Positions 2,333-61,427 of a stretch of DNA of 64,000 nt are shown here, in pieces. This DNA comes from Escherichia phage AV110, in sequence record OR352940.1. One strand, written 5' to 3'. The translations under genes and the position numbers were made by a program. The notes beneath the pieces were generated by a model. It saw nothing but the letters and a program-made list of their open reading frames with translations, had not been told where the DNA came from and made no database searches. Each line of letters opens with the position of its first letter. Within the stretch, counting starts at the first letter, position 1.

Positions 2333-2369
2333 TTTATTTCTCCAAATTAGTATTTGTTTTGATAGGTCT

Positions 2370-2398: not shown

Positions 2399-2435
2399 TT
2401 TATTTTGGGCTCTTTTTCAAAAGCCCTGGTAAAAT

Positions 2436-2651: not shown

Positions 2652-2690
2652 TTTATTTCTCCAATTGGGTTGTTTTGTTTTGATAGGTCT

Positions 2691-2719
2691 ATAATATCAT
2701 GTTTGAAGCACGTGTAAAC
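2691..2719 (-). promoter_or_regulatory. early promoter (GTTTAC-17-TATTAT), duplicate copy
   Basis: Same module as 2370-2398, upstream of ORF 2436..2651. Confidence 0.5.
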
Positions 2720-4951: not shown

Positions 4952-4996
4952 GCTAATTTCCTCAATTGATTAATGTTTTTTGTAATCCATGAGAGA

Positions 4997-5026
4997 ATTA
5001 TACTCTGCTCTCAAGAGTTTGTACAA
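4997..5026 (-). promoter_or_regulatory. early promoter (TTGTAC-18-TATAAT)
   Basis: Upstream of ORF 4505..4951; near-identical about 35-bp element recurs at 49971-50000. Confidence 0.45.
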
Positions 5027-5229: not shown

Positions 5230-5257
5230 TTTGTGTTCCTCATGTTTCAGTAGGACT

Positions 5258-5287
5258 ACTATACCATAATCCTACCTTGTTGTAAAC
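5258..5287 (-). promoter_or_regulatory. early promoter (GTTTAC-18-TATAGT)
   Basis: Upstream of ORF 5029..5229; -10 followed by AGTCCTAC. Confidence 0.45.
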
Positions 5288-5743: not shown

Positions 5744-5769
5744 GATGTTATCCTCTTTTAGATAGGACT

Positions 5770-5799
5770 ACTATATCATAGTCCTACTTAGTTGTAAAC
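5770..5799 (-). promoter_or_regulatory. early promoter (GTTTAC-18-TATAGT)
   Basis: Upstream of ORF 5480..5743; -10 flanked by inverted repeat AGGACTA/TAGTCCT. Confidence 0.45.
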
Positions 5800-6628: not shown

Positions 6629-6633
6629 AATTA

Positions 6634-14357: not shown

Positions 14358-14385
14358 AATATTCTCCTCTTGTTTTGATAGGTCT

Positions 14386-14414
14386 ATAGTATCATAGACC
14401 ACAGTTGTTGTACA
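14386..14414 (-). promoter_or_regulatory. early-type promoter (TGTACA-17-TACTAT)
   Basis: Upstream of ORF 14130..14357; -10 flanked by GGTCTAT/ATAGACC inverted repeat. Confidence 0.4.
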
Positions 14415-14939
14415 TCATTTTAGCAAAATAAAATCAACTTGTTCTGCCAATGAACGTCTGAACATTAATTGACAACTTCCGAGGATGAAATCAGGTGCTT
14501 CATAGACCGCGATGTAGTATCCTTTAGCTTTCAAGAGTTCAACATCCACCTGGTCATCAAACCATGCATAAACCGCGTCAACACTTTCAAATCCAAAATA
14601 GAACCCTTGAGCCCAATCTTCACTCAATTCAAATGTGTGCTCAATTCTATGGTATCTTAAGATATTTTGTTCAAGGAGTTTGTCTTCATTTACTGTAGGA
14701 CGATTAGGGACATTATAGTTGTCGCCGTGATGGTAGAAGTTACCTGAGAGTATTCCATGCTTATCAAGGAACTCCCATGTTTCTTCAGAGTTGTCGGTGC
14801 CCGACCAACCGTATGGCGAGCGAGGTTCTTTATTCCAAGAGGTTTCCCAAATTCTGACGGCTTTACCATCTTCGATAGCAATTCCTGGTAATGATTCACG
14901 TTGAGTACAAAAACTACGTTCTACGCGATAAACTAACAT
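14415..14939 (-). CDS. hypothetical protein (174 aa)
   Basis: ORF with GGAG RBS downstream of early promoter 14966-14994. Confidence 0.5.
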   Translation of the reverse strand: MLVYRVERSFCTQRESLPGIAIEDGKAVRIWETSWNKEPRSPYGWSGTDNSEETWEFLDKHGILSGNFYHHGDNYNVPNRPTVNEDKLLEQNILRYHRIEHTFELSEDWAQGFYFGFESVDAVYAWFDDQVDVELLKAKGYYIAVYEAPDFILGSCQLMFRRSLAEQVDFILLK

Positions 14940-14965
14940 ATTATTCTCCTCTGGTTGATAGGTCT

Positions 14966-14994
14966 ATAATATCAAAACCGGAGGAGAAGTAAAC
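14966..14994 (-). promoter_or_regulatory. early promoter (GTTTAC-17-TATTAT)
   Basis: Upstream of ORF 14415..14939; followed by AGACCTATCAA. Confidence 0.5.
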
Positions 14995-15883: not shown

Positions 15884-15913
15884 AATTTTTCTCTCTTTGT
15901 TTAAGTTGAATTC

Positions 15914-15943
15914 ATTATACTCCAACCATCCTTGGTTGTACAA
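15914..15943 (-). promoter_or_regulatory. early-type promoter (TTGTAC-18-TATAAT)
   Basis: Upstream of paralogue B; spacer AACCAAGGATGGTTGGAG shared with 16471-16500 and 58281-58309. Confidence 0.45.
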
Positions 15944-16440: not shown

Positions 16441-16470
16441 AATGTTTTCCTGTTTGGTTAAGATAGAAAG

Positions 16471-16500
16471 ATTATACTCCAGCCATCCTTGGTTGTAAAC
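16471..16500 (-). promoter_or_regulatory. early promoter (GTTTAC-18-TATAAT)
   Basis: Upstream of paralogue C; spacer AACCAAGGATGGCTGGAG. Confidence 0.5.
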
Positions 16501-19563: not shown

Positions 19564-19613
19564 AATATTTTCCTCTGTCTTACGGACGTTAAGGTCATTT
19601 AGCTGATAAGCTT

Positions 19614-19642
19614 ATAATATCATGCCCTCAGGTAGTGTACAC
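19614..19642 (-). promoter_or_regulatory. early-type promoter (GTGTAC-17-TATTAT)
   Basis: Upstream of srd-position gene, heading the srd-dda-dexA string. Confidence 0.4.
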
Positions 19643-19716
19643 TCTTTTTTCATAAAATGCTTTAATTTTTTATGTGTTATAATGGTTCTGAGTTCCATCC
19701 GGTTATTCCAATTCAG

Positions 19717-20325
19717 TCAGTAACTGACAATAGACAGATTCCAGATTGTATAACGTCCATCTTGAATAATAGAATCTACACGCAGTGTAGTCCCTATAGG
19801 GAGCATAAATTCACATTCGTCAGATATAAGTCTAGCATTAGACCGTCTTGTCGCTTCAGGGAAAGCTCCATTGAACTCACAAGATGGCGCAGCCAGAATC
19901 ATGTTAAGCATATGTTCACGGAAGTTGAAAGCAAATGGTGCATCTTTGATGCAGAACATATTAAATGTTCCGTAAAAATTATACGAAGCAAAGTTACGTG
20001 CTACACCGAACACTGGGCTGAAGCTCATTACTCTGTCAAATTTAATAATACTACCAATGCCTTTATCATCGAGTGTAGCCATAGTTTTCTTAGAGATTCC
20101 ACGATACATTGTCTCAGGAACAGAAGACGTCCAATTTCTACGAACGATTGAACTTAACTCCTGTTGAATACAGTCTGGCTTGTTTTCCATACACTGCCAA
20201 AGGATGCTTTGTTCATTATCGTTGAATTGACTATCAATTTCGTACTGCAATACATCTTGATATTCGGGGTTTTGAGCACGACGAACCATTTCTTCAATTT
20301 CACACTCGTTATACGGCATAAACAT
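19717..20325 (-). CDS. modA: ADP-ribosyltransferase, ModA-like
   Basis: 202 aa; R-S-ExE triad candidates (YRG, FSPVFG, ECEF); paralogue of next gene; position as T4 modA. Confidence 0.55.
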   Translation of the reverse strand: MFMPYNECEIEEMVRRAQNPEYQDVLQYEIDSQFNDNEQSILWQCMENKPDCIQQELSSIVRRNWTSSVPETMYRGISKKTMATLDDKGIGSIIKFDRVMSFSPVFGVARNFASYNFYGTFNMFCIKDAPFAFNFREHMLNMILAAPSCEFNGAFPEATRRSNARLISDECEFMLPIGTTLRVDSIIQDGRYTIWNLSIVSY

Positions 20326-20353
20326 TTAGGTTTCTCCTGTGGTTGATAAAGGT

Positions 20354-20382
20354 ATAGTATCATCATCGGAAGAGTTTGTACA
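20354..20382 (-). promoter_or_regulatory. early-type promoter (TGTACA-17-TACTAT)
   Basis: Upstream of ModA-like gene. Confidence 0.4.
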
Positions 20383-20964
20383 CTAAAAATTCAACATTTT
20401 CAAATGAATGATTTTGTATAATCGAGATAAAGGGTCATATTCTAAGTCTTCAATTTCCACAATCTCAAATCTAGAGATACCTGAGACCATGTACTCTTGT
20501 TCAGATTCAATCATATCTAGGACATCGATACGAGTTTCTTCCATAACATGCTTAGGGTTCTTTCCGGCGAGTACAATGTTAACCATGTTTTGGTAGTAAT
20601 CAAAAATGAATGGAGCATTCCTGAGACTAAGAATAGTGTACGTCTGATATTCCCATCTCCCAGAGAATTGACGAGCTGTACTGAAATCAGTTGTGAACGA
20701 TGTTACTCGTCCAGGAGACCAATGGCATCCAACAGAAAGAAGAGAAAGACGTTCTACTTCTTCTGGAGTTACACCACGGTAGAGTTCTACTGGTACTGTA
20801 GAAGTCATATGCTTACGAACAAGATGGTCTAATTCATAGTGGAAATCCGGGTCTTCCTTAGAATCGGTGCAAGCCCAGAGAATGTTTTGTTCTTGGCGGG
20901 TGAATTTGCTATCAATCAGATTTGTTAGGTATTCACGTTCTTGAAGTTCAGATTGACATGTCAT
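20383..20964 (-). CDS. modB: ADP-ribosyltransferase, ModB-like
   Basis: 193 aa; YRG, FTTDFSTA, EQEY motifs; N-terminal EQNILWAC shared with ModA-like neighbour. Confidence 0.55.
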   Translation of the reverse strand: MTCQSELQEREYLTNLIDSKFTRQEQNILWACTDSKEDPDFHYELDHLVRKHMTSTVPVELYRGVTPEEVERLSLLSVGCHWSPGRVTSFTTDFSTARQFSGRWEYQTYTILSLRNAPFIFDYYQNMVNIVLAGKNPKHVMEETRIDVLDMIESEQEYMVSGISRFEIVEIEDLEYDPLSRLYKIIHLKMLNF

Positions 20965-20991
20965 GATAGACCTCCATTTAAAGATAAGCCT

Positions 20992-21022
20992 ATCATAACA
21001 CGAGAGGAGGGAATGTAAACTA
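20992..21022 (-). promoter_or_regulatory. possible early promoter (GTTTAC-19-TATGAT)
   Basis: Upstream of ModB-like gene; spacing slightly long. Confidence 0.3.
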
Positions 21023-21180
21023 CTTTTTAAGCTTTCCTACTAAAAGTCCGTCAGGACCAGGTTGTTCTAACATGAATAAGGATGCTTTAAAAAGCAATGT
21101 CAACCCTTTCACCATTCGATACCATGTCTCAAAGTCTTTTTCCTTGATTTCTAGTAAGAATTTCTCTTTAAATTTCTCTT

Positions 21181-21369
21181 TCATTTCCAAGGACTCCATG
21201 GTGGAGGGTCATCATAATAAGAGGCAAGGTCTTTCAGGGCTTCAACAGGTAAACTAAAGCCGTGTCGTTGTATAATACTATCTAGTTCATCGACAAGTTC
21301 ACTACAATGCACTTTAGGAGCCTTGACTTCAGGCTCGTCAAACATACTCATAAGGTCCATATTATTCAC
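21181..21369 (-). CDS. hypothetical protein (62 aa)
   Basis: ORF with stop/start overlap to upstream ORF. Confidence 0.4.
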   Translation of the reverse strand: MNNMDLMSMFDEPEVKAPKVHCSELVDELDSIIQRHGFSLPVEALKDLASYYDDPPPWSPWK

Positions 21370-21826
21370 CTAAATAAAAACTAGGCTGCTCGGAGAATGT
21401 TTCTAGCGCTACACCTTTTGCCTTAAAAAAATTCCAAATAGCTCGTTGCAAATGGATTAAATCTGCTAATGATGTAATAAAGTATTTTTTGGCAAAATAC
21501 TTATGGTCTCGCTTTTCAAACAAGTCTAAACGCTTTTCAGGATTCACATAAACAGCATTTTCTGTAGATTCGTACCCTAAATCCTTTATGCCTTCTTCAA
21601 GACTAAACGGAGAATTTTTAGAATGAGTAATAGCTCCAACTCGCTCTACACGAATTTTGTAACCTTTAGGAATCTGCAATTTGCAGAATTCTTCTACGAT
21701 ATATTGCGGATTATTTAGACTTTTGTTAATGAGAATAGCTATTTCTAGTGGGGTCTTATCTTCTACTGGTATATGTTTAAACGACTTGGCTTCAAGCAAA
21801 TACATTTTAAATAACATAGCATCCAT
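21362..21826 (-). CDS. hypothetical protein (154 aa)
   Basis: ORF, coding-like composition, coupled to neighbours. Confidence 0.5.
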   Translation of the reverse strand: MDAMLFKMYLLEAKSFKHIPVEDKTPLEIAILINKSLNNPQYIVEEFCKLQIPKGYKIRVERVGAITHSKNSPFSLEEGIKDLGYESTENAVYVNPEKRLDLFEKRDHKYFAKKYFITSLADLIHLQRAIWNFFKAKGVALETFSEQPSFYLGE

Positions 21827-22032
21827 TATAATTTCCTCGATGGTTCACCCATATAAAGTTTTACAATACGTTCGCCTTCATCTTCGACGAGCTTTTCTTC
21901 ATGTTTCTGGAATTCTTTAGCCATATTCTCTTCAAGAACATCCAGCCAATCTTCTGGACCGACACCATCGTCCCAGCTTTTAAACCATTTAACTATCTTG
22001 TTCATTCGCAGCTCCCTGAGCTTGAACCACAA
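21826..22032 (-). CDS. hypothetical protein (68 aa)
   Basis: ORF coupled to neighbours. Confidence 0.4.
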   Translation of the reverse strand: MWFKLRELRMNKIVKWFKSWDDGVGPEDWLDVLEENMAKEFQKHEEKLVEDEGERIVKLYMGEPSRKL

Positions 22033-22325
22033 TCAGAATAACTTGACCCGGAATCACCAGGCCAAGACGATACGTATGAATGATTATAACTTGAAGAGCT
22101 TGAAGCGTTAACCTGTTTTGTTTTTGGTCGAATAACTTCTTCCATCATGCCGTCACCAATGTATTCCCAACTTTTTTCGTGTGTATCAGGAATAGGCATC
22201 ATACCTTCGCCTGGTTTAACAGCAAACAACTTCTTCAGCATCGTAAGCATTAATTGTTCCTCGAACAAAACGAACACCACCGTCATCCCAACGGATTTCG
22301 GCATTAAATTTGACGTCTTCACCAT
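22002..22325 (-). CDS. hypothetical protein, start uncertain
   Basis: Ser/Gly/Cys-rich C-terminus; 5' part overlaps next ORF in another frame, true start probably internal (MMPIPD, near 22202). Confidence 0.3.
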   Translation of the reverse strand: MVKTSNLMPKSVGMTVVFVLFEEQLMLTMLKKLFAVKPGEGMMPIPDTHEKSWEYIGDGMMEEVIRPKTKQVNASSSSSYNHSYVSSWPGDSGSSYSDCGSSSGSCE

Positions 22326-22443
22326 CCATCATGAATGAGTGTACGACTACATCATCATAATATCCAAGGCCGTACTTTAATGAAACTTCTTGAGCAATCA
22401 AAGCACCTAATGTGTTATTAGGTTTAATCCAACGATTTAACAT
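22216..22443 (-). CDS. hypothetical protein (about 76 aa)
   Basis: ATG at 22443 preceded by AGGAG; track start 22512 lies in promoter/terminator region. Confidence 0.4.
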   Translation of the reverse strand: MLNRWIKPNNTLGALIAQEVSLKYGLGYYDDVVVHSFMMDGEDVKFNAEIRWDDGGVRFVRGTINAYDAEEVVCC

Positions 22444-22471
22444 ATTGTTCTCCTCTTGAGTAAGTAAGAAT

Positions 22472-22501
22472 ATCTTAACACAGTTTTTAGTGGTTGTAAA
22501 C
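22472..22501 (-). promoter_or_regulatory. early promoter (GTTTAC-18-TAAGAT)
   Basis: Follows soc terminator; tgTTAAGAT element shared with 51399-51428. Confidence 0.4.
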
Positions 22502-26668: not shown

Positions 26669-26697
26669 TTTAACTCCTTAGTTGATTTGATAGGACT

Positions 26698-26727
26698 ACT
26701 ATACTATAGTCCATCTATAATGTAAAC
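26698..26727 (-). promoter_or_regulatory. early promoter (GTTTAC-18-TATAGT) for sp
   Basis: Upstream of sp-like gene. Confidence 0.45.
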
Positions 26728-27410: not shown

Positions 27411-27437
27411 TTCAATTTCCTCTGTAGTTGATAGAAA

Positions 27438-27467
27438 GATAGTAACACAGTATGTGGTGCTTGTAAA
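27438..27467 (-). promoter_or_regulatory. early promoter (GTTTAC-18-TACTAT)
   Basis: Upstream of lipoprotein gene. Confidence 0.45.
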
Positions 27468-27481
27468 CAGCTATTTTAAAA

Positions 27482-27909: not shown

Positions 27910-27999
27910 GTTTTCGATGTTAGCTGAACTACTTGAACCGTTTAAATTCTGCTTTACAATCGATGGTTTTCATTTTGTTCTCCAGTAGTTGATAGGTCT

Positions 28000-28028
28000 A
28001 TAATAACACAACTACTGGAGAAGTAAAC
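28000..28028 (-). promoter_or_regulatory. early promoter (GTTTAC-17-TATTAT)
   Basis: Family-1 element with AGACCTATCAA. Confidence 0.45.
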
Positions 28029-28402: not shown

Positions 28403-28431
28403 AATGTTTTCCTCTTGGTTTGTGTAAGTAC

Positions 28432-28461
28432 ATCATATCATGCCTAGAGGAAGATGTAAAC
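28432..28461 (-). promoter_or_regulatory. early promoter (GTTTAC-18-TATGAT)
   Basis: Immediately after gp41 terminator hairpin, upstream of ORF 28028..28402. Confidence 0.45.
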
Positions 28462-44266: not shown

Positions 44267-44282
44267 TTAATTTGATGTGGTC

Positions 44283-49038: not shown

Positions 49039-49110
49039 AAGTACCTCTTGGCTCAATTCATAGGTCTATTATATCATAATATTTAGAGACCTATCTTAAA
49101 GCACGAGATA

Positions 49111-49933: not shown

Positions 49934-49970
49934 ATTATTTTCCTCGGTTATTTTATTATCCAACGAGAGA

Positions 49971-50000
49971 ATTATACTCATCTCTCAAGAGTTTGTATAC
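49971..50000 (-). promoter_or_regulatory. early-type promoter (GTATAC-18-TATAAT)
   Basis: Repeat of the 4997-5026 element. Confidence 0.4.
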
Positions 50001-50239: not shown

Positions 50240-50270
50240 GATATTTTCCTCATTTTAAGACGATAGGAAG

Positions 50271-50299
50271 ATAATAACATGTCTTCCTATCGTTGTACA
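50271..50299 (-). promoter_or_regulatory. early-type promoter (TGTACA-17-TATTAT) inside 12-bp perfect inverted repeat
   Basis: Arms ACGATAGGAAGA / TCTTCCTATCGT (about 50260-50293) bracket the -10. Confidence 0.45.
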
Positions 50300-50302
50300 T
50301 TA

Positions 50303-50641: not shown

Positions 50642-50935
50642 TCAACTGTAACGATAACATTCGTTAGCTTTACGTTTGGCTTCAGTATGAGAAGTATTAT
50701 AATCATAATCTTCTTTACTGTAAACATCTTTTTTCAACTTACGAACTTCTTTGCGGAGTTGTCGATTCATTTCATTCTTGACTTCAGAATCAACGCCTTT
50801 CATACGTTTCCATTTATCTGAGCGGAAAATGTTTTCAACCATGACTTTGTGGCTAACACCGTCAGGAGCTTTACGCTTACCAAAATAGTCGTAATCGCGA
50901 ACTTTCAAATCTTTACGACGATATGTTTTACCCAT
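50642..50935 (-). CDS. highly basic protein (about 97 aa)
   Basis: Start MGKTYRRKDLK (ATG 50935, GAGG RBS); Lys/Arg-rich throughout, probable nucleic-acid binder. Confidence 0.45.
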   Translation of the reverse strand: MGKTYRRKDLKVRDYDYFGKRKAPDGVSHKVMVENIFRSDKWKRMKGVDSEVKNEMNRQLRKEVRKLKKDVYSKEDYDYNTSHTEAKRKANECYRYS

Positions 50936-50942
50936 AAGTACC

Positions 50943-51191
50943 TCAGAGGTTGATTGATACAATGCGTTTGATAAAATTCACTTCACTTACTGAAAGGTCT
51001 TTAAGACCGATTGATTCTAAACGCTGAGTAAGCGTCAACATTGGGATATAATCCCAATGAGTTTTATTTGCTTGATAAGTACGAACGCCATTAGCAATTT
51101 CAACATACAAATCGGAAATGGTAACGAATACCGGTCGCTCGTTATTTACATTAAGAGATAGAACAACTTTCTTTGAATCTAAACTAATCAT
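50943..51191 (-). CDS. hypothetical protein (82 aa)
   Basis: ORF. Confidence 0.45.
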   Translation of the reverse strand: MISLDSKKVVLSLNVNNERPVFVTISDLYVEIANGVRTYQANKTHWDYIPMLTLTQRLESIGLKDLSVSEVNFIKRIVSINL

Positions 51192-51370
51192 GGCTTAATT
51201 TCCTTCGCAATTGAACAGAAGATACCACGGTCACAAAGCATTTCACCAATTTCTGGATATTTGATTGAACGGTACCAAACATCCAGGTTTGAAACTTTGG
51301 TTATCTGTACTGCATTACCGTTGACAGAATAGTACTGGTCAACCTTAATTTCTTTATCTTCAATTGTCAT
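51188..51370 (-). CDS. hypothetical protein (about 60 aa)
   Basis: Start taken at MTIEDKEIK (ATG 51370, GGA RBS); track start lies in promoter. Confidence 0.4.
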   Translation of the reverse strand: MTIEDKEIKVDQYYSVNGNAVQITKVSNLDVWYRSIKYPEIGEMLCDRGIFCSIAKEIKP

Positions 51371-51398
51371 TTTATTTTCCTCTATAGTAGATGGTTTA

Positions 51399-51428
51399 AT
51401 CTTAACACATTTATTGAGGATGTAAACT
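51399..51428 (-). promoter_or_regulatory. early promoter (GTTTAC-18-TAAGAT)
   Basis: Intergenic, upstream of ORF 51188..51370. Confidence 0.4.
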
Positions 51429-51519
51429 GTTTTATGAAAATATTTTTTGATTTGAGAGGGGCACAAGGAGATAGTGAAGTGAAGATTCCAATGGATTATA
51501 TTAGAAATGAGATAAAGAA

Positions 51520-51538
51520 GACCAGGCGGCACCTGGTC
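51520..51538 (-). terminator. hairpin terminator downstream of NrdH-like gene
   Basis: GACCAGG...CCUGGUC overlapping stop codon, U-rich tail. Confidence 0.4.
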
Positions 51539-52034
51539 AATCTTCTATGATATCAGAGTCATATCCTAATGAAATCAAGGACTTTTTAAACTCTGCAATA
51601 TTCTTTTGTTTCTTATCATTTAAAAATATGACAGGATAACGAATATTAAGTGAAGTGAATCCTGCACGTTTAGCAAGAGATACGATTAAAGGACGGTCAT
51701 ATTCAATCTTACCATTGTTAGTGAGGACTTTATAAAATGTATAAGGAGCATTGAGCTCCTTTAAAAGTTTTGTAACAGTATAACATCCTGGACAACGTCC
51801 AACTTCTTCAGGGATGCCATAAACTTCAATTTTATTCTTTGGGTTCGAGTTTTGTTCCACGAGAAATAATTCCTTGATAAGCCCAGTACGGCGGGTTAAC
51901 AGAATCATCACCAGAATTTTCTTCAGGGAAATAAACCTGAATAACGAATCCGGATTCGTCAAAGGTAAAATACACTGTAGGCAGTTCACCAAGCAATTCG
52001 GAACGAGCGTTAATTTCTTCGAGGTCTTGCTCAC
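51537..52034 (-). CDS. thioredoxin-fold redox protein (NrdH/glutaredoxin-like), start uncertain
   Basis: C-terminal about 100 aa carry KIEVYGIPEEVGRCPGCY redox motif; N-terminal 60 codons overlap the upstream ORF and look non-genic; no ATG at domain start (possible GTG near 51860). Confidence 0.5.
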   Translation of the reverse strand: MSKTSKKLTLVPNCLVNCLQCILPLTNPDSLFRFISLKKILVMILLTRRTGLIKELFLVEQNSNPKNKIEVYGIPEEVGRCPGCYTVTKLLKELNAPYTFYKVLTNNGKIEYDRPLIVSLAKRAGFTSLNIRYPVIFLNDKKQKNIAEFKKSLISLGYDSDIIED

Positions 52035-52143
52035 GTCCAGCCCAAAAACTAGGATTTAAACTACATTCGTAAAAATAATAGTCATTACCAAACATATCAA
52101 AACCCTTCCAACTCTCTACCACGTACCGCTCAAAACTAATCAT
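51832..52143 (-). CDS. hypothetical acidic protein (103 aa)
   Basis: Protein-like composition. Confidence 0.45.
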   Translation of the reverse strand: MISFERYVVESWKGFDMFGNDYYFYECSLNPSFWAGREQDLEEINARSELLGELPTVYFTFDESGFVIQVYFPEENSGDDSVNPPYWAYQGIISRGTKLEPKE

Positions 52144-52145
52144 AA

Positions 52146-52361
52146 TTAAGCCTTTTTATCAAGAACAGAATTCAGTTTATTAGTAATTTTGTCCAAACGT
52201 TCATTGAATTCGCTGGAGGATAAACCCTTTTCCGGAGAAATTAAACTAATCACGAAAAATACACCAGTAAAAGGAATAAGAAAAATAGCTCCAACTGCCA
52301 TAAACAAAAAGAACGTTACAGTTGTAAGAAAATCAGCTAAACCTTTACGAAATTTATACAT
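52146..52361 (-). CDS. small membrane protein (71 aa)
   Basis: Central hydrophobic segment FFLFMAVGAIFLIPFTGVFFVISLI. Confidence 0.45.
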   Translation of the reverse strand: MYKFRKGLADFLTTVTFFLFMAVGAIFLIPFTGVFFVISLISPEKGLSSSEFNERLDKITNKLNSVLDKKA

Positions 52362-52471
52362 ATTTACCCTTAATTAACTAAGCATTGATAAGCATTAAAC
52401 TATATTGCGAATAAAATTCTGGACCAAAATTAAAAATCATATCATTTATAGTATCCATAATGTAATTCAAT

Positions 52472-52942
52472 TTAATCATGTTTCCACACCCCATCGGTAT
52501 TTGACCAAAGTCGCTGGTTATCTGATCCTCGCCACAGTTTTTTGGTCGGAAGATTTTTCTCATACTTCCCATCAATAATAACATCAACATATTTAAGCAT
52601 TTCTAGTTGTTTAATATCTTCAAACTTATATCCTGTCCACAACCAAATGCTTTTATTTGGATAAAGATTTTTTACTGTTTGAACAATGCAATGAATAACA
52701 TCTCGGTTATCAGGATAGAGAGGGTCACCTCCGGTTATAGTCAATCCTTCTATATAATCATTATTCAAACATTCAATTAATTGTTCTAGTGTTTCGCCAG
52801 TGAATGGAATACCATTTCTAGCATTCCATGTTGATTTATTATAACACCCTTCACATTTATGCAAACAACCTGTAACGAAAAGAACGACCCTGCAACCAGG
52901 GCCATTCACAAAATCGCAAGGATAAAATCTATCATAATTCAT
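52472..52942 (-). CDS. nrdG: anaerobic ribonucleotide reductase activating protein NrdG (radical SAM)
   Basis: 156 aa; radical-SAM cysteine cluster CLHKCEGC; overlaps nrdD end as in T4. Confidence 0.85.
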   Translation of the reverse strand: MNYDRFYPCDFVNGPGCRVVLFVTGCLHKCEGCYNKSTWNARNGIPFTGETLEQLIECLNNDYIEGLTITGGDPLYPDNRDVIHCIVQTVKNLYPNKSIWLWTGYKFEDIKQLEMLKYVDVIIDGKYEKNLPTKKLWRGSDNQRLWSNTDGVWKHD

Positions 52943-54756
52943 TGGTGTTTAACCCTATGCATGATTTCTTTATTTTTACCGAGATTAAATCCGCGTTCGT
53001 TCGGATTTCCCAAATAACCACAAGTTCTTCTTATTGTGTTCATCTTTTTAGGATCAGTTTCTCCGCAAACTGAACAAACAAATCCATTTTCAGTAGGAGT
53101 CATTTCATGAGTACTTCCGCATGTAAAACATTTATCTACTGGCATATTAACACCAAAATAATCTAAATGTTGTGCAGCATAATCCCATACAGCCTCAAGT
53201 CCCTTTAAATTGTTTTTCATATCTGGAAGTTCAACATAAGAAATGTGACCGCCTGTCGCAATGAAATGATACGGCGCTTCACGAGAAATCTTTTCAAACG
53301 GAGTAATATTTTCTTCTACTGAAACATGGAAACTATTAGTGTACCAGCCTTTATCTGTAACATCTTTTACACTTCCATATTTTTCTGTGTCGAGTTTACA
53401 AAAGCGATAACAAAGGTTTTCAGCAGGAGTAGAATATAAACTAAAAGCAAATCCGGTTCTTTCAGTCCACTGTTTAAGATGAGCATTCATTTTAGTTAAA
53501 ATTTCTTGTCCAATATCACGACCGACAAGAATATTCAATTCGTGAATACCAATGTATCCCAAAGACACTGAACTTCTACCGTTTTTAAATAACTCAATTA
53601 TATCGTCATCAGGTTTAAGACGAACCCCAAATGCACCTTCTTGGTAAAGAATAGGAGCAACAGTCGCTTTAACTCCTTTTAAGGAACTAATTCTACACAT
53701 CAAAGCTTCAAAACACAGGTCCATTCGTTCGTTAAATAGCTCAACAAATTTCTGTTCATTGAACTGTGTTCCAATATAAGAATCTAACGCAATACGAGGA
53801 AGATTCAGTGTTACAACACCAAGATTATTACGTCCATCAAGAATTTCATTACCAGTCGAATCTTTCCATACGCTCAAGAAACTACGGCAACCCATCGGAG
53901 AAACAGGAACTGAAGAACCGGTAATAGCTTTATTATTCTTAACCGAAATAATGTCAGGATACATTCTTTTGCTTGCACATTCTAACGCAAGTTGTTTAAT
54001 ATCATAGTTCGGATCGTCTTTATAAAGATTAACACCTTCTTCAACGAACATAACAAGCTTAGGGAAAATAGGAGTTATTCCATCACGACCAAGACCTTTA
54101 ATGCGGTTTTTAAGAATTGCCTTCTGAATCATTCGTTCAGTCCAATCGGTTCCCGTACCAAATGTAATTGTTACAAAAGGAGTTTGTCCGTTTGAACTAA
54201 AGAGAGTATTTACTTCATATTCATAAGCTTGGAATGCGTCATAGACATCTTTTTCTGTTTTAGATTGAGCATAATTCAGAATGTCTGGTATTTGCCATTT
54301 TTCTGCATCTTCAACATGTTTAGCGTATGTACGTTTAACATAAGGAGAAAGAACTTTATCGACATTCGCAAATGTAGTTCCGCCATACTGATGTGAAGCA
54401 ACCTGTGCAGTAATTTGTGCCATAATTGCAGTAGCAACGCCAATAGATTTAGGCGTTTCAATTTGAGCATTGCCTAATTTAAATCCATTCTCAAGCATCC
54501 CCTTTAAATCGACTAAACAGCAATTGGTAAACGGAAGAGCAGGAGAATAATCAATATCATGCATGTGAATGATTCCGCTTTCATGCGCATTCATAATAAA
54601 AGACGGGACCATATTTTTGGCAATGTGCTTAGACACAATACCAGCCATAAGGTCCCGTTGAGTTGGAAAAACACGAGAATCTTTATTAGCATTCTCGTTT
54701 AAAAGGTCTTTATTAGTTTTATGAATTAATCCTTCAATTTCTTTTTCAATTTTCAT
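52939..54756 (-). CDS. nrdD: anaerobic ribonucleotide reductase NrdD (glycyl radical enzyme)
   Basis: 605 aa; C-terminal glycyl-radical motif RTCGYLG and Zn-ribbon CFTCGSTHE...CSVCG; uninterrupted (no intron). Confidence 0.9.
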   Translation of the reverse strand: MKIEKEIEGLIHKTNKDLLNENANKDSRVFPTQRDLMAGIVSKHIAKNMVPSFIMNAHESGIIHMHDIDYSPALPFTNCCLVDLKGMLENGFKLGNAQIETPKSIGVATAIMAQITAQVASHQYGGTTFANVDKVLSPYVKRTYAKHVEDAEKWQIPDILNYAQSKTEKDVYDAFQAYEYEVNTLFSSNGQTPFVTITFGTGTDWTERMIQKAILKNRIKGLGRDGITPIFPKLVMFVEEGVNLYKDDPNYDIKQLALECASKRMYPDIISVKNNKAITGSSVPVSPMGCRSFLSVWKDSTGNEILDGRNNLGVVTLNLPRIALDSYIGTQFNEQKFVELFNERMDLCFEALMCRISSLKGVKATVAPILYQEGAFGVRLKPDDDIIELFKNGRSSVSLGYIGIHELNILVGRDIGQEILTKMNAHLKQWTERTGFAFSLYSTPAENLCYRFCKLDTEKYGSVKDVTDKGWYTNSFHVSVEENITPFEKISREAPYHFIATGGHISYVELPDMKNNLKGLEAVWDYAAQHLDYFGVNMPVDKCFTCGSTHEMTPTENGFVCSVCGETDPKKMNTIRRTCGYLGNPNERGFNLGKNKEIMHRVKHQ

Positions 54757-55226
54757 TTTAAACTCTTTCTAAGCTGCTTTTTGAATGAAGCTATTAATTG
54801 TGTTTTAGTATCTGATTCATTATATTCAAATCCTCTTTGAAGCATCTCGGTCATCATTTCCTCTTTACCTAGTCTTGAGAACTCTTTAGTTTTGTCTGGA
54901 ACAAAATTAGGATGGATATTATTATCAGAATAATCTTGTTTCAAATAAGCGAGAAGAGCTTCAAGCCATTCTAGGTAGTCGACATCACGGCCTTTAAGAC
55001 CAGAACGGTTGAACTTATGCTTCATTTGACCTTCTGCTGCGTTGCACAGAGAACAGAGTAATCCACGAACTCTACCGGCTTTTGGCCCGTTTAATTCATG
55101 GTCGTGGTCAAGATGGTTACCTTGAACATCAGGGTCTAATTCACGGTGGCAAATAGGACACTTACCGTTCTGTGCATCATAAAATTTTTGTTTTTCTTCT
55201 TTATATTTTGCGCCTGATAATAACAT
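54753..55226 (-). CDS. 49: endonuclease VII gp49 (Holliday junction resolvase)
   Basis: 157 aa; CPICHREL...HLDHDHELNGPKAG...CSLCNAAEG zinc/HNH-like core matching T4 endo VII; identical C-terminal tail as recalled. Confidence 0.9.
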   Translation of the reverse strand: MLLSGAKYKEEKQKFYDAQNGKCPICHRELDPDVQGNHLDHDHELNGPKAGRVRGLLCSLCNAAEGQMKHKFNRSGLKGRDVDYLEWLEALLAYLKQDYSDNNIHPNFVPDKTKEFSRLGKEEMMTEMLQRGFEYNESDTKTQLIASFKKQLRKSLK

Positions 55227-55231
55227 GATAA

Positions 55232-55256
55232 ACCCTTACCTTAAATAGATAAGGGT
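55232..55256 (-). promoter_or_regulatory. RNA hairpin occluding gene 49 ribosome-binding site
   Basis: 7-bp stem ACCCUUA/UAAGGGU with 11-nt loop; 3' arm contains the AAGGG Shine-Dalgarno 6 nt before the gene 49 AUG. Confidence 0.4.
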
Positions 55257-55261
55257 ATTTA

Positions 55262-55675
55262 TTAACTTAAACGTCTTTCTAAATATTCAATGTATTCTGC
55301 GGCTGCTTGCATCAGGTTACCTTCATAGCCGTCGTTATTTTCTTGTCCGGCTAATTTAGCTAAAGCATAAGAAATACGTTCACCTTCGAATTCGCCAAGT
55401 CCACCATCACAAACTACTTGGTCAATTTCTTCGAGTTCATCTATTGAATGGGATTCCCAGAAGCACCAAAGAGAAGTATCACGGTCATAGATGCAAAGTT
55501 TCTCACCTGTGTTCAACAACACTTCGATAATGCCATGGTCGCCATAACCATCTTCGGTAGTAGTACCAATTACCTTGATGATCGTATCTTTCTTTAATTC
55601 AGGAAACTTGACTTGTAGTTCTTCATCTTCTTTAACAATCTTGAACCATTTACCGCGAGTTTCAGAAATATTCAT
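55262..55675 (-). CDS. hypothetical acidic protein (about 137 aa; pin position)
   Basis: Start taken at MNISETRG; track ORF N-terminus overlaps next ORF; sits where T4 has pin. Confidence 0.4.
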   Translation of the reverse strand: MNISETRGKWFKIVKEDEELQVKFPELKKDTIIKVIGTTTEDGYGDHGIIEVLLNTGEKLCIYDRDTSLWCFWESHSIDELEEIDQVVCDGGLGEFEGERISYALAKLAGQENNDGYEGNLMQAAAEYIEYLERRLS

Positions 55676-55676
55676 A

Positions 55677-55874
55677 TCAATATTCTCTATAAAAGTTACG
55701 ATGAGAACGTTTAGCTTTGCGAAGCTGACGTTTAGTAGGACGAACTGTAAATGGTTGTCCAGAGAAAAAATTCGGATCGGTTTTAATAAGCAAATACCAA
55801 TCATGTTTACCATTTTTTAATAAACGGTACAATAATTTAACTTGCATAATAATCTCTTCCCATTTCCATATCAA
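55677..55874 (-). CDS. hypothetical basic protein (65 aa)
   Basis: ORF; an alternative 55-codon acidic ORF overlaps in another frame. Confidence 0.3.
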   Translation of the reverse strand: MIWKWEEIIMQVKLLYRLLKNGKHDWYLLIKTDPNFFSGQPFTVRPTKRQLRKAKRSHRNFYREY

Positions 55875-55975
55875 TTAATTCATTTATTGAAGGTTCATCA
55901 TAACATGGTTCTTCGTCGTTGTAAACCGTTTTGACGTCTGGCTCGACAGTCTCCCATCGAGCAGAATACCACGGT

Positions 55976-56332
55976 TTAACCCCGGAGTTTATTGAGCTCT
56001 TCATAATCAATCCAGGATTCTAGCCCTGACGGCAGGTCACATTCAATGTTCCACAGAAGCTCTTCAATGGCTTGCAGGCGATTATATTCTTCAACGGTAA
56101 TGGTAACCATTGGTGCAACCGGTTCTGCCTTTTTAACCATCATATCGTTCATCAGGACGTAAAGGTCATCACGAACGACAGTGTCGTTCCAACCCCATGA
56201 TTTGGCTTCGTAAGCTAATGATGAAGGGAGCACATTTAAAACTTCAATAATAGTTGGAGCATCAGGACCAAGTTCATTGGCACAAACTTCGTATACATCT
56301 TGGAAATCTTTAAGATTTAATGAATATGTCAT
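55976..56332 (-). CDS. hypothetical protein (118 aa)
   Basis: ATGA-coupled to nrdC. Confidence 0.5.
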   Translation of the reverse strand: MTYSLNLKDFQDVYEVCANELGPDAPTIIEVLNVLPSSLAYEAKSWGWNDTVVRDDLYVLMNDMMVKKAEPVAPMVTITVEEYNRLQAIEELLWNIECDLPSGLESWIDYEELNKLRG

Positions 56333-56592
56333 TTAAAATATTCTCGTAGTTGGTCAAAGCCACCGATCGAAGTTCCATCAGGAGCAAACACTTGAGGCAT
56401 AGTCAATCCGACTTGTGATTCACGTCCAAGCTTAGTCAGAAGCTCAGCAATTTTTTCTTCATCGAATACACCTTTTTCTGGCATAACATTAATGAATTCG
56501 AACGGCTGTTTCTTAACAGTCAGCAATCGTTTCGCATTATCACAATAAATGCATTTATGAATAGTAGAGTCATACCCGTACACTTTAAACAT
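56329..56592 (-). CDS. nrdC: thioredoxin NrdC
   Basis: 87 aa from MFKVYGYDSTIHKCIYCDNAKRLL (ATG 56592, AAGGAAA RBS), CxxC active site; matches T4 nrdC as recalled. Confidence 0.85.
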   Translation of the reverse strand: MFKVYGYDSTIHKCIYCDNAKRLLTVKKQPFEFINVMPEKGVFDEEKIAELLTKLGRESQVGLTMPQVFAPDGTSIGGFDQLREYFK

Positions 56593-56998
56593 TATTTTTC
56601 CTTTCATCGATTAAATATGCAATGCCAAATACAATACATGTAATAAAACCTGTGATACAGATAGAAACCAACAACACCGTACCAAAGAACCAAATCAAGT
56701 TATCTTTAGTAGTTTGTTTGATATCCATCTCACGAATTTCTATAGCTATCGTATCACCTTTATTCAGAAGCGTATAAAATGATGGAGATACACGCCTGTC
56801 AAAAACTCGTCCTTGCTCATCTTTATAAACTGCAATAAATTCTAATTTAGAATATTTTCCTGTAGATTGACCTGAAATTAATTCCACTACCTCCACAGGA
56901 ATTACTTTAGTTTCCATGTAAGTATTCTGGCTGTTCCAAATGAATGGAATGATGGCAAAAACTAAAGCTGCGATAAAACAACGAAGGCTATATCTCAT
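56585..56998 (-). CDS. membrane protein (137 aa)
   Basis: N- and C-terminal hydrophobic segments; position of T4 nrdC.1. Confidence 0.5.
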   Translation of the reverse strand: MRYSLRCFIAALVFAIIPFIWNSQNTYMETKVIPVEVVELISGQSTGKYSKLEFIAVYKDEQGRVFDRRVSPSFYTLLNKGDTIAIEIREMDIKQTTKDNLIWFFGTVLLVSICITGFITCIVFGIAYLIDERKNNV

Positions 56999-57303
56999 TA
57001 TAATGTTCTCTCAAATTTATGGAAGCATTTACGGCATTTCAATTTCAAGTTATCAGTGGTCCAGTTAACCAGTTGGACTTGGATAGTTCCACATTCCGGG
57101 CATGGATGTTTTGCTGCCGATTTGGCAGCATTTTCACGTCGTTCAACCATTTTCATTATTTCGTTCCATGCCGGAGGAACGAACTCTTCTTCACCGTGGA
57201 TTTTATCTCGCTGAACAAATTCGATCTTTGAACTATCGTCAATAAACTTAACCAAGCCATGATTAGTGCTCATATCAATATCCTCTAAAAGACGTAGTTT
57301 CAT
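56998..57303 (-). CDS. zinc-ribbon protein (101 aa)
   Basis: C-terminal CPEC...CRKC pair. Confidence 0.5.
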   Translation of the reverse strand: MKLRLLEDIDMSTNHGLVKFIDDSSKIEFVQRDKIHGEEEFVPPAWNEIMKMVERRENAAKSAAKHPCPECGTIQVQLVNWTTDNLKLKCRKCFHKFERTL

Positions 57304-58253
57304 TATAACACCTCAATGGCATTTCGTAAACCATCCGCTTTCGCATTCAGAGCTTTTAACGATTTAGTTTGTTCTGCAATCTGGGCTTCGACTTCTTTCA
57401 GACGAGATTTGAGATATTCGCGTTCTTCTCTTAAGTTATCAACTTTTTCTGCTTTAGGCTCTTTAATAGGCTTAGGCTTATACTCGTTAGGGTTCTTCAA
57501 CTTAATTTGAATGCGAGAACTGTATAACATTGAACCATTAGCTTCGGTTTCATCATACATTTCTACCACGTCCATGATTCTTAACATCATGCGAAGTTTA
57601 TAAGACAGCGAACGAACGGTTTTGTTGCGCTTATTAATTTCTTCGGCTTTCATGGTACCGAGATTACGTGAGTAGTAATAAGGAACCTGGATATCAATTG
57701 ATAATGATGCGTTACCATTACCGGTTGGTTTGAATACTGCAGTAACCCAATCTTTAACATGAACTTTATTTGTACGATCATCGCCGCCTGTGAATAATTT
57801 ACGAGAATGTTTAAAAAGCATATTCACTTGGTTATTGAATTCACAAGCAAATTTATCAGCAAATTTAGTTTCAGGAATGGTAGATAACCAATCAGCCAAA
57901 TGAGTCTTTTTAACATCATTAACAATAGTGAATTCAACCAAATCGGTTTTAGATGTCACAGATTTAATAAAGCTCGGCTTCATAAAGTTTTTAATGTTAT
58001 CGCGAGCTACAGTAGAAGATAATAAACGAGAACGTTTAAACCATTGAAGCAACGTCCCTAACGAATGAGAATACGCATTTTGAGTATCTTTACAGATATG
58101 ATTTTCTTGGCCTATGTATGTACCAAAATCGCGAAGAATACCACTTACTACATCTCGGTGTGGAACATCAAATCCTAGTGCACCAGAAGCACGTTGGGCA
58201 TGAACGTTAGCGATAAGACCTGCAAAGTATTCAATGTAATGTGAACGTGTCAT
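57303..58253 (-). CDS. hypothetical protein with C-terminal coiled coil (316 aa)
   Basis: Heptad-like charged C-terminus; early promoter upstream. Confidence 0.5.
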   Translation of the reverse strand: MTRSHYIEYFAGLIANVHAQRASGALGFDVPHRDVVSGILRDFGTYIGQENHICKDTQNAYSHSLGTLLQWFKRSRLLSSTVARDNIKNFMKPSFIKSVTSKTDLVEFTIVNDVKKTHLADWLSTIPETKFADKFACEFNNQVNMLFKHSRKLFTGGDDRTNKVHVKDWVTAVFKPTGNGNASLSIDIQVPYYYSRNLGTMKAEEINKRNKTVRSLSYKLRMMLRIMDVVEMYDETEANGSMLYSSRIQIKLKNPNEYKPKPIKEPKAEKVDNLREEREYLKSRLKEVEAQIAEQTKSLKALNAKADGLRNAIEVL

Positions 58254-58280
58254 AATATTTTCCTCTCGTTAAGATAGATT

Positions 58281-58309
58281 CATTATACTCCAACCATCCT
58301 TGGTTGTAC
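58281..58309 (-). promoter_or_regulatory. early-type promoter (TGTACA-17-TATAAT)
   Basis: Upstream of ORF 57303..58253. Confidence 0.45.
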
Positions 58310-58310
58310 A

Positions 58311-59306
58311 TCATTCCTTAAGAAGTTTTACTACTTGAATAAGATTAGCTCGTTCTGTTTTATTTTTACCATTTAAGCCTGCTAATCGTGAGATTTCATC
58401 GTCGGTCTGTTGAATAGTTACATTAAGTTCGTTAATCAAAGCTTCAAAGTATTTGATTTGCTCAGCATGTTTTGATTCAAATTTCTGAACAGGAATAACG
58501 TCTTGGTTTAGTTCATCAATAAGGTCTTTAAGAGCATCTTCTTGGTTGATATCATATTCAACTTCTTTTATTTCTTCAACGAGCTCGTCTTTATATCTAA
58601 CGTCTTTTAGTCCTGGTGCTGGTCCTGAAATCTCTTCTTTAAGAGTACAAACATACCCAATACGGTATCCAATGCCGTCTCGCTTGATATCAACTTCGTC
58701 GATAAATCCACAATGTTTAAGACCAGAGCCGATTAGGTCAAAATATCCTTGACGTCGTCCTTCAAACGTTACACGAACTACTAAGACAGTTTTGCCACCA
58801 ACCTTTTGAAGCTCACATTTATAAAAGTCTGTTGAACCTGAATAACTTGGATGAGTTTTAAAGTTCATCTGACGATCTAGGCCCATTTGTAAACGTGCTG
58901 TTACGGCCATAAAACGTGTTTGGTTCTCGTTAAGATGAGCAACAATCCATTTCAAAGGCATTTTACACTGTTCACGACCGAACAAATCGGTACGTCCTAG
59001 ATTACGCAGGATGTTGTTAGAGTTAATCATCGACAGAACGTTAAGTTTATTCAGCGCGCTGAAGATTCCATCAGCCATTGATTTTCCATAACCTTTACAC
59101 GCTTTAATAAGTGCTCGCGGCAGATTAGTATAGATTTCAGACGGCATATGAAAATCAAATTTACTAGTCAGTAATTGATGAACTTGGATAGCAATTTGCT
59201 CATAATTAAGTGCTCTGCGATCGTTATGGTCTTTAAACCACACTTTAATCTGTGAAGCACATAAACCGTTAATTTCATGTTTTACCGCATCAGATGTAAT
59301 GCTCAT
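58311..59306 (-). CDS. hypothetical protein with C-terminal coiled coil (331 aa)
   Basis: C-terminal 80 aa acidic coiled coil; MotA-box middle promoter upstream. Confidence 0.5.
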   Translation of the reverse strand: MSITSDAVKHEINGLCASQIKVWFKDHNDRRALNYEQIAIQVHQLLTSKFDFHMPSEIYTNLPRALIKACKGYGKSMADGIFSALNKLNVLSMINSNNILRNLGRTDLFGREQCKMPLKWIVAHLNENQTRFMAVTARLQMGLDRQMNFKTHPSYSGSTDFYKCELQKVGGKTVLVVRVTFEGRRQGYFDLIGSGLKHCGFIDEVDIKRDGIGYRIGYVCTLKEEISGPAPGLKDVRYKDELVEEIKEVEYDINQEDALKDLIDELNQDVIPVQKFESKHAEQIKYFEALINELNVTIQQTDDEISRLAGLNGKNKTERANLIQVVKLLKE

Positions 59307-59896: not shown

Positions 59897-59923
59897 GTTT
59901 TACCTCCAGTAGTTGATAGGTCT

Positions 59924-59952
59924 ATAATAACATAACTATAGACCTTGTAAAC
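59924..59952 (-). promoter_or_regulatory. early promoter (GTTTAC-17-TATTAT)
   Basis: Family-1 element with GGTCTATA/TATAGACC inverted repeat around -10. Confidence 0.5.
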
Positions 59953-61381: not shown

Positions 61382-61398
61382 TTCGTTTCGATAGGTCT

Positions 61399-61427
61399 AT
61401 AATAACATATCCTAAAAGCATGTACAC
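61399..61427 (-). promoter_or_regulatory. early-type promoter (GTGTAC-17-TATTAT)
   Basis: Family-1 downstream motif AGACCTATCG; upstream of P-loop NTPase gene. Confidence 0.45.

Follow-up and report, generated by a model that had tools for sequence, protein, structure and literature searches.

The early regions of T4-type phages are known to carry composite elements called PeSLs. As defined in RB49 and phi1, a PeSL has a strong early promoter with AT-rich sequence upstream of it, a stem-loop that takes any of five positions, and, at its 3' end, a Shine-Dalgarno sequence (SD) and an ATG, and these elements cluster in hyperplastic regions, where they mediate the insertion, deletion, and replacement of open reading frames (ORFs) (Arbiol 2010, PMC2839356). 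They were later extended to T4/PST and KVP40/nt-1 (Comeau 2014, PMC4122927). A second related arrangement is that of the T4 genes e, soc, 49, and I-TevI, which have translational hairpins with an internal promoter (PMC3014915). Here, we analyzed a 64,000-nucleotide stretch of Escherichia phage AV110 (sequence record OR352940.1), hereafter the window, in which an earlier note had described early promoters of the GTTTAC type with the -10 element placed between inverted arms, among them a perfect 12-bp pair at 50.26 kb. We read these as composite early-promoter/stem-loop cassettes of an RB69-like Mosigvirus, of the same kind as the published PeSLs, and give this reading a probability of roughly 0.65.

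The window corresponds to the early region of an RB69-like Mosigvirus, i.e., a T4-type phage. Its gene order is like that of the T4/RB69 early region (rIIA-proximal genes, then gene 43, gene 55, and nrdC), all of its long ORFs are on the minus strand, and the 3-kb stretch around the 50.26-kb site is 97 to 99% identical to many Escherichia and Shigella Mosigvirus genomes, with vB_EcoM_G53 being the best match (98.8%). Approximately 30 early promoters of the GTTTAC type were predicted in the window, every one of them on the minus strand (Table 1; promoters are named by the position of their -10). The pattern GTTTAC-N14-20-TAnnnT had 26 matches, nearly all on the minus strand, against 6.5 expected. 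A position weight matrix of two blocks, trained only on the -35 and -10 regions, found 28 sites on the minus strand and none on the plus strand, and when applied to the first 50 kb of T4 it found 13 and none, respectively; the T4 promoters used here are likewise predicted, as the T4 record AF158101 carries no promoter features. A T4-specific matrix was needed because a scan with the generic sigma-70 consensus did not discriminate (65 sites versus 62.9 in shuffled sequences). An SD and an ATG were found 20 to 45 nt past the -10 in 27 of the 28 sites, and the aligned promoters share an A-rich stretch at -44 to -39. All promoter calls are predictions, and the +1 positions were inferred from the -10 by the usual 7-nt distance. 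A search of the whole window against Rfam at the gathering threshold gave no matches.

The perfect 12-bp pair at 50.26 kb is present, with the -10 in its loop. It spans 50260-50293 on the minus strand, where the arms ACGATAGGAAGA (50293-50282) and TCTTCCTATCGT (50271-50260) enclose the 10-nt loop CATGTTATTA (50281-50272), and the -10, TATTAT at 50276-50271 with a TG extension, fills the loop and takes in the first base of the right arm. The -35-like element is weak (ATGTAC, 50300-50295), the predicted +1 lies at approximately 50264, and the SD (GAGGAA, 50251-50246) and the ATG (50239) of a 79-amino-acid (79-aa) ORF follow downstream. Folded as RNA, the hairpin reaches -16.7 kcal/mol (z = -5.1). 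The repeats that had been quoted for 59.9 kb (AGGTCTATA/TATAGACCT, 9 bp) and 5.8 kb (TAGGACTA/TAGTCCTA, 8 bp) were also recovered. The one at 14.4 kb exists as well, but as the 7-bp pair GGTCTAT/ATAGACC rather than the 8-mer originally given.

Such repeats are more frequent than expected by chance. For each promoter, we measured the longest stretch of the spacer region that is perfectly complementary to part of the segment from the -10 to about +33 (-12 to +33). In the window, arms of at least 7 nt occurred in 8 of 28 promoters and arms of at least 8 nt in 6 of 28 (permutation p < 0.001), compared with 9% and 3% when spacers were combined with the downstream regions of other promoters and 6% and 1.8% at random positions. 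In a set of 92 non-redundant T-even promoters, assembled from the window, T4, three Mosigvirus relatives, and T4-like fragments from IMG/VR, arms of at least 7, 8, and 9 nt were found in 30, 21, and 15 promoters, against 6.5, 2.7, and 1.2 after permutation (P < 0.0005). This set came partly from pattern-based fetches, whose patterns left the spacers free except in the CAAACTCTT family, which shrinks to a few entries on de-duplication. Direct and reverse-only pairing controls showed no excess, and a complement-only control showed a modest one (8 versus 3.3). RNA folding of the segment from -36 to +12 gave z < -2 in 8 of 27 promoters, with the main hairpins at -13 to -21.5 kcal/mol and z values from -3.5 to -5.4. 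Chance, or a side effect of a promoter consensus that has a near-palindromic -10 in AT-rich sequence, would fit the shorter arms, since matches of 4 to 6 nt are common in mismatched pairs (mean, 5.0), and perfect hairpins are only mildly enriched across the window (24 versus 15.6). As an account of the longer arms, we find it hardly credible, because the permutations that gave the above p values kept the consensus, the direct and reverse-only controls were flat with only a modest complement-only excess, and the arms covary clearly in both orthologues and paralogues, as described below.

The repeats run from the -35/-10 spacer either to the discriminator and start site or to the 5' leader and SD, and they were found in about one-third of the promoters. 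We sorted the 30 armed promoters by where the right arm starts: between -10 and -1, with the -10 inside the loop (class A, 19 of 30), or between +1 and +11, usually over the SD (class B, 11 of 30). In T4 (sites at 6630, 7215, and 20612, minus strand), the cef promoter has a 13-bp pair, ATCAGTAGTTGAT/ATCAACTACTGAT, the motB promoter has GGGACC/GGTCCC around TATAAT, and the dmd promoter has a 10-bp pair, GACAAGACTA/TAGTCTTGTC. The same promoter-hairpin architecture is thus seen, among predicted promoters, in T4 itself.

The arms differ from one promoter to another, each having its own complement (AGGTCTATA, TAGGACTA, ACGATAGGAAGA, GAGAGA, TTCTCCAGTAGTTG, TTTGGTACAGGT, and GGTCTGTAGGA), and the center of symmetry shifts between about -16 and -11.5 or out into the leader. 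Promoters 59929 and 28005 do not differ over a 20-nt downstream segment, but the part of this segment with which the spacer pairs is not the same in the two. The best-sampled case is the family CAAACTCTT-(6 nt)-AGAGTATAAT-(6 nt'), which includes 49976 and 5002 in the window, the T4 motB promoter, and many T4-like contigs. Among its 21 distinct sequences, 99.2% of 126 pair cells were standard pairs, with 8 G.U cells and no A.C, and both sides had changed in 4 of the 6 pairs. None of 500 shuffles reached the observed values, and sliding the partner reduced pairing to 55% or less; these counts are not corrected for phylogeny. Paired changes were also found at 50276, where the window has GATAGG...CCTATC (A:T), phages 55, UGJNEcP1, and p000v have GGTAGG...CCTACC (G:C), and phage SF has the G.T intermediate. 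This covariation points to pairing that is selected in one strand of sense polarity, most simply in RNA.

Covarying arms of differing sequence argue against a common protein site, which the earlier note had proposed as one explanation of the palindromes. In that case, the palindromes or the downstream CCTATC would be bound by a protein that regulates early promoters, such as an early shut-off factor. In favor of such a factor, published work has not established how T4 early promoters are shut off (Hinton 2010, PMC2988021; Uzan and Miller 2010, PMC3014915), and CCTATC is a conserved motif whose position over the start site is fixed. However, we did not find one conserved palindrome at a fixed position in many promoters, as an operator would require: the arms are unrelated between promoters, their symmetry center moves, they covary, with G.U tolerated, instead of being conserved, and the majority of promoters are without a palindrome. 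CCTATC, for its part, is no palindrome, and the discriminator and initial transcribed sequence explain it adequately. Moreover, TATAAT-AGACCTATCAA also occurs in non-T4-like contigs with a TTGACA -35, although some of these matches may be chance. We therefore regard a protein site as quite improbable.

The claim of a conserved downstream motif held up, and the motif is strand specific: TA...T....CTATC occurs 14 times on the minus strand of the window and never on the plus strand. When promoters were aligned on the -10, positions -3 C, -2 C, -1 T, +1 A, +2 T, and +3 C each carried 1.0 to 1.4 bits in a logo of 28 sites, 5 of which had been selected through the motif itself; of the other 23, which were chosen on -35 and -10 alone, 13 had YYTATC in place. 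The promoter consensus thus extends beyond the -10 into the predicted start site as A-G-A-C-C-T/A-T-C-A-A, with the slash marking the start. A set of 34 independent, non-redundant T-even promoters, consisting of T4 and IMG/VR fragments not selected on the downstream motif, gave A-g-a-C-C-T/A-T-C-A-A-A at lower information. Consistent with this, RB69 early promoters prefer C at -3 to -1 (Nolan 2006, PMC1524935), and T4 early promoters have "additional regions of consensus" (Hinton 2010, PMC2988021). The GTTTAC -35, TGn, TAnnnT, the A-tract at -40, and the C at -3 to -1 all match the T4 early promoter consensus, but the motif is much sharper here (1.0 to 1.4 bits at -3 to +3), the T4 side of this comparison being our own scan. 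Judged from sequence, the AGACCTATC motif is the promoter's own discriminator/start-site consensus and no separate element. Of the two outcomes that would have spoken against the earlier note, the motif did prove to be simply T-even early promoter consensus, whereas the other, a lack of palindrome excess over chance, was not seen.

TATAAT-AGACCTATCAA was also found in non-T4-like viral contigs in IMG/VR, some of which have TTGACA as the -35 and, downstream, an SD and an ATG; it may represent a wider start-site context of strong phage promoters, although some matches are probably due to chance. A scan with TATnATAGACCTATCAA, which specifies 16 bases and was run on a very large collection, returned many non-T4 contigs, part of them probably by chance, and only its matches with a T4-type -35 were used.

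The hairpin at the 50276 site is kept across Mosigvirus lineages, but its loop is not. The loop CATGTTATTA of the window is present as its exact reverse complement, TAATAACATG, in JK42 and phiE142. In a second lineage, the 7-nt loop AGTGTTA of phage 55 and p000v is TAACACT, again the exact reverse complement, in UGJNEcP1, and in Ec2-ASingh the loop is shorter by 3 nt, leaving a spacer of 15. About 82 of 125 matching records shared 95% or more identity with the window across the 77-bp query, which fits the window's loop orientation, and a two-place signature of the flipped loop was seen in about 11 of 60 sampled rows. As judged from these alignments, the stem is the conserved feature of this locus, the predicted -10 exists in one loop orientation only, and a minute inversion between the 12-bp arms creates or removes a promoter-like site. 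Minute inversions in hairpin loops have been described for chloroplast non-coding DNA. The loop at 50272-50281 resembles them in being short and in occurring in both orientations among near-identical genomes; unlike them, it carries a -10, and its orientation decides whether a promoter-like site exists. A cassette of the 50276 type with a canonical GTTTAC and TATAGT was found in another gene context in Kosakonia phage 305. A search for related loci with the 79-aa ORF gave two loci only, and a scan anchored on the end of the upstream gene gave few additional orthologues of the 50276 site.

Several observations weigh against reading the stems as selected RNA structures of PeSL-like cassettes. 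The +1 positions were deduced from the -10. Two-thirds of the promoters have no repeat, and the enlarged promoter set was, as stated above, drawn partly by pattern-based fetches. Single mismatches in the wider promoter set (G.T 4 versus A.C 2) are too few to settle RNA versus DNA, and most of the strand-specific signal for RNA therefore comes from a single family. Class A hairpins leave the SD uncovered and have no U-tract. Masking of the SD by the promoter region, compared with shuffled upstream sequence, had a mean z of -0.39 and was significant in 4 of 27 cases. Finally, the loop inversions at 50276 are hairpin/inverted-repeat events at the DNA level, and such events could yield paired changes without selection.

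Because these inversions are seen at 50276, we retained, as the main rival, the possibility that some paired changes arose at the DNA level. In its full form, the palindromes would be by-products of replication hairpins, in which template switching corrects the arms and flips the loops, with no RNA function. The 50272-50281 loop found as exact reverse complements among close relatives, the flipped-loop signature in about 11 of 60 sampled records, and the fact that every single mismatch observed is of the transition type all fit this explanation. However, it fails to explain why repeats arise at one-third of the promoters and why their left arm invariably lies in the spacer, why hairpins persist with differing arms across T4, Mosigvirus, and Kanagawavirus, why G.U is tolerated and A.C absent in the best-sampled family (CAAACTCTT), and why class B arms follow the SD and leader. 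A flipped-loop version of the CAAACTCTT family was also sought in IMG/VR, where only unrelated matches were found. On balance, we consider a pure DNA by-product unlikely.

A further possibility is that the stem-loops are terminators or attenuators of upstream transcription, the function published for PeSLs. The stem-loop of a phi1 PeSL terminates about as well as rrnB T1 (Arbiol 2010, PMC2839356), and the 50276 hairpin carries the annotation "terminator" in one related record. However, a GC-rich stem followed by a U-tract, the mark of an intrinsic terminator, was found in none of the promoter-embedded hairpins, and none was called by a terminator scan, whereas the UUCG-loop terminators of the window do come up in that scan or in a hairpin survey. 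The stems here are AT-rich and 6 to 14 bp long, with loops of 8 to 25 nt. We consider this explanation rather improbable, and because class A hairpins have no U-tract, the terminator role shown for the GC-rich phi1 stem may not apply to them.

We also compared the SD in predicted folds of long and short transcripts. In the class B promoter 28005, the spacer and the leader/SD form a 14-bp stem of -21.5 kcal/mol as RNA, and the predicted unpaired probability of the SD is 0.24 in the long transcript versus 0.57 in the short one. The predicted shift is similar for 14971, 28437, and 20997; in the last, the SD is predicted to be occluded in read-through RNA only (0.09 versus 0.56). PhAPEC2 and Ec2 have a T in place of the spacer C of 14971, so that the stem has no mismatch in these two phages. 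General masking of the SD in read-through RNA was dropped, being at best weak (mean z = -0.39), and was kept for class B only. Downstream of the 28005 promoter (approximately 27930-27975, minus strand), the RB69ORF040c homologue lacks about 11 nt that PhAPEC2 has. This deletion shifts the frame after 14 codons, and an internal ATG (27909) starts an 80-aa ORF anew.

As PeSL-like cassettes, these elements would be ordered as follows: an A-rich upstream stretch, a GTTTAC-type -35, TGn plus the -10, AGACCT/ATCAA, a short A/C-rich leader, the SD, and the ATG. In about one-third of them, the spacer, the part least constrained by the promoter, would be shaped to complement the discriminator/start site (class A) or the leader/SD (class B). 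The cassette's own transcript would start within the repeat and would therefore be without the 5' arm. Because that arm lies upstream of the predicted start, the stem would form only in read-through RNA coming from an upstream promoter. In class B, the stem would bury the SD, so that the ORF would be translated from its own early promoter only, as suggested by the predicted folds and the analogy with T4 e, soc, 49, and I-TevI. Class A hairpins may be intercistronic structural or attenuator elements, with attenuation, insulation, or stability as candidate roles.

As in e, soc, 49, and I-TevI, the class B SD is predicted to be buried in long transcripts, and the proximal transcript, lacking the 5' arm, should be translatable. 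The T4 genes, however, have a late or middle internal promoter and late-only translation, whereas the early sigma-70 promoters here would give early-only translation. Class B thus probably works like this type but is no member of it, as its internal promoters are of the early GTTTAC type. The fuller proposal, in which the spacer serves as an anti-leader or anti-SD arm that makes the cassettes self-insulated, class B translation is early only, as a mirror image of the T4 lysozyme hairpin, and the loop inversion at 50.26 kb switches a -10 on and off between phages that are otherwise near-identical, is a tentative one that we consider possible but doubtful.

The other suggestion of the earlier note, that promoter cassettes spread by recombination, found support in a comparison of the whole window with PhAPEC2, phage 55, and Ec2-ASingh. 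Breakpoint ends of indels or replacements lay within 60 bp of a promoter in 13 of 28 cases, against 5.9% (1.7) expected, and four events have promoters at both bounds. PhAPEC2 is without the 79-aa ORF that the 50276 and 49976 promoters flank. A 71-aa ORF (2436-2651) between the near-identical 2696 and 2375 promoters is missing in Ec2, which keeps one promoter copy. In phage 55 and Ec2, the 58287 promoter is present in two copies with an additional gene of about 1 kb between them, and both phages also show an indel of about 200 bp at the 27444 promoter, which begins just upstream of the -35. At three two-sided promoter junctions, the high-scoring segment pairs overlap within duplicated promoter sequence, which places the crossover inside the repeated promoter sequence. 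The "few near-identical sequence families" of the earlier note proved to be only partly apt. The approximately 30 promoter copies per 64 kb do resemble one another, but as a mosaic, with pairs such as 2696/2375, 59929/28005, and 49976/5002 and the group 58287/16476/15919 sharing the spacer, the downstream part, or both. Because these cassettes of 50 to 70 bp are repeated, homologous recombination between them would insert, delete, or swap the small ORFs that they flank, and comparison with relatives shows such exchange.

Of the seven defining features of PeSLs, the five that can be read from sequence were found here, the other two being terminator activity and the mini-circles that arise by recombination between neighboring copies. 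As in PeSLs, a sigma-70-type early promoter (spacer of about 17 bp), AT-rich in its upstream region, is joined by a stem-loop in or near the promoter (in about one-third of the cases here; "between -35 and -10" and "overlapping the -10" are among the published subclasses), and the element has at its 3' end the SD and start codon of the ORF that follows. Many similar copies are spread among small early ORFs, described as non-essential for PeSLs, and they lie at indel/replacement junctions between close relatives. The differences are in host phage and stem. The published PeSLs are from RB49/phi1, T4/PST, and KVP40/nt-1, and those described here are from an RB69-type Mosigvirus. Unlike the phi1 PeSLs, which have polyG/polyC stems, one of them a shown terminator, the stems here are AT-rich, varied, and without a U-tract. 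In addition, the stem in PST/T4 lies just upstream of the promoter according to the published legend, but the arms found here, and those found in T4 by our own scan, are inside it.

Other elements of the window were of related interest. The promoter-like site upstream of the gene 55 homologue has 8-bp arms, ATAGGTCT/AGACCTAT, and no GTTTAC -35; a TGCTTTA lies 23 nt upstream of its -10, too distant for a canonical MotA box. A middle-promoter-like site at 44274-44307 (minus strand), upstream of a 45.2-like ORF, has a MotA-box-like CGCTTTA, 12 nt, and a TATAAT that lies in the loop of a perfect 8-bp repeat, GATGTGGT/ACCACATC, which makes it analogous to the "PmSL" elements reported for nt-1. The 50701 promoter lies within coding sequence and has an imperfect hairpin (fold z = -3.95). 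A perfect 10-bp repeat with a 10-nt loop, TTTTAGCAGC/GCTGCTAAAA, was found inside a dda-like ORF (18305-18334, minus strand). Five perfect hairpins of 8 to 9 bp with a TTCG loop (UUCG tetraloop) are present on the minus strand, at 47564-47545, 40930-40911, 30242-30223, 28487-28466, and 22537-22516, and a T-run follows three of the five. By their sequence features, they look like real intergenic terminators or stabilizers, distinct from the promoter-embedded repeats; the one at 28487-28466 lies directly upstream of the 28437 promoter.

Table 1. Predicted early promoters and promoter-like sites of the window, with their arms and core elements
Feature	Coordinates	Strand	Details
Flagged element (50276)	50260..50300	-	ATGTAC-A-ACGATAGGAAGA-CATGTTATTA-TCTTCCTATCGT
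Class A promoter (59929)	59913..59952	-	GTTTAC; AGGTCTATA 59945-59937 / TATAGACCT 59926-59918; TATTAT 59929-59924; then AGACCTATCAACTACTGGAG
Class A promoter (5775)	5759..5799	-	GTTTAC; TAGGACTA 5786-5779 / TAGTCCTA 5770-5763; TATAGT 5775-5770
Class A promoter, paralogue of 5775	5247..5287	-	GGTAGGATTA/TAGTCCTAC region, one U.G pair, predicted fold z = -2.5
Class A promoter	26687..26727	-	GTTTAC; hairpin GGACTATAG-TATAGT-AGTCC, fold z = -2.3
Class A promoter	14375..14415	-	ATGTAC -35; GGTCTAT 14400-14394 / ATAGACC 14387-14381; TACTAT 14391-14386
CAAACTCTT-family promoter (49976)	49960..50000	-	GTATAC -35; GAGAGA 49986-49981 / TCTCTC 49970-49965; TATAAT 49976-49971 in loop
Second CAAACTCTT-family promoter (5002)	4986..5026	-	TTGTAC -35; GAGAGC/TCTCTC, C.T mismatch at innermost pair; TATAAT 5002-4997
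Promoter-like site upstream of gene 55 homologue	49057..49094	-	TATAAT 49073-49068 between ATAGGTCT 49094-49087 and AGACCTAT 49067-49060
Class B promoter (28005)	27978..28028	-	GTTTAC; spacer TTCTCCAGTAGTTG 28022-28009 : leader/SD CAACTACTGGAGAA 27991-27978; TATTAT 28005-28000
Class B promoter (14971)	14944..14994	-	Spacer TTCTCCTCCGGTT : AACCAGAGGAGAA (SD), 13 bp, one C.A mismatch
Weak class B promoter (28437)	28409..28461	-	TTCCTCT 28452-28446 : AGAGGAA 28415-28409
Promoter (20997)	20971..21020	-	CCTCC in spacer, GGAGG SD
Early promoter	61388..61427	-	GTGTAC / TATTAT / AGACCTATCG; no inverted repeat
Early promoter, AACCAAGGATGG(T/C)TGGAG family with 16476 and 15919	58271..58311	-	-10 at 58287
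Early promoter, spacer family of 58287 (16476)	16460..16500	-	
Early promoter, spacer family of 58287 (15919)	15903..15943	-	TTGTAC -35
Two near-identical promoters	2359..2719	-	-10 at 2696 and 2375; ...TTCAAACATGA TATTAT AGACCTATCAAAAC...
Early promoter (27444)	27428..27468	-	CTTTCTATCAACTACAGAGG
More early promoters, without strong inverted repeat	19603..22501	-	-10 at 22477, 20359, and 19619
More early promoters	50685..57331	-	-10 at 57307, 55902, 51404, and 50701

On the reading preferred here, these cassettes are no new kind of element but an RB69-type instance of PeSLs, and they have no bearing on the mechanism of early-promoter shut-off. Promoter/stem-loop cassettes have been proposed to drive the shuffling of genes within variable regions in T4-type phages, including those used for therapy, and the RB69-type example adds numbers to this proposal on stems selected for pairing, on two geometries, and on indel junctions. 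If the masking of ribosome-binding sites works as predicted, dozens of small early ORFs would be movable between genomes with their timing kept, and each mobile ORF would bring its own promoter together with insulation from upstream transcription.

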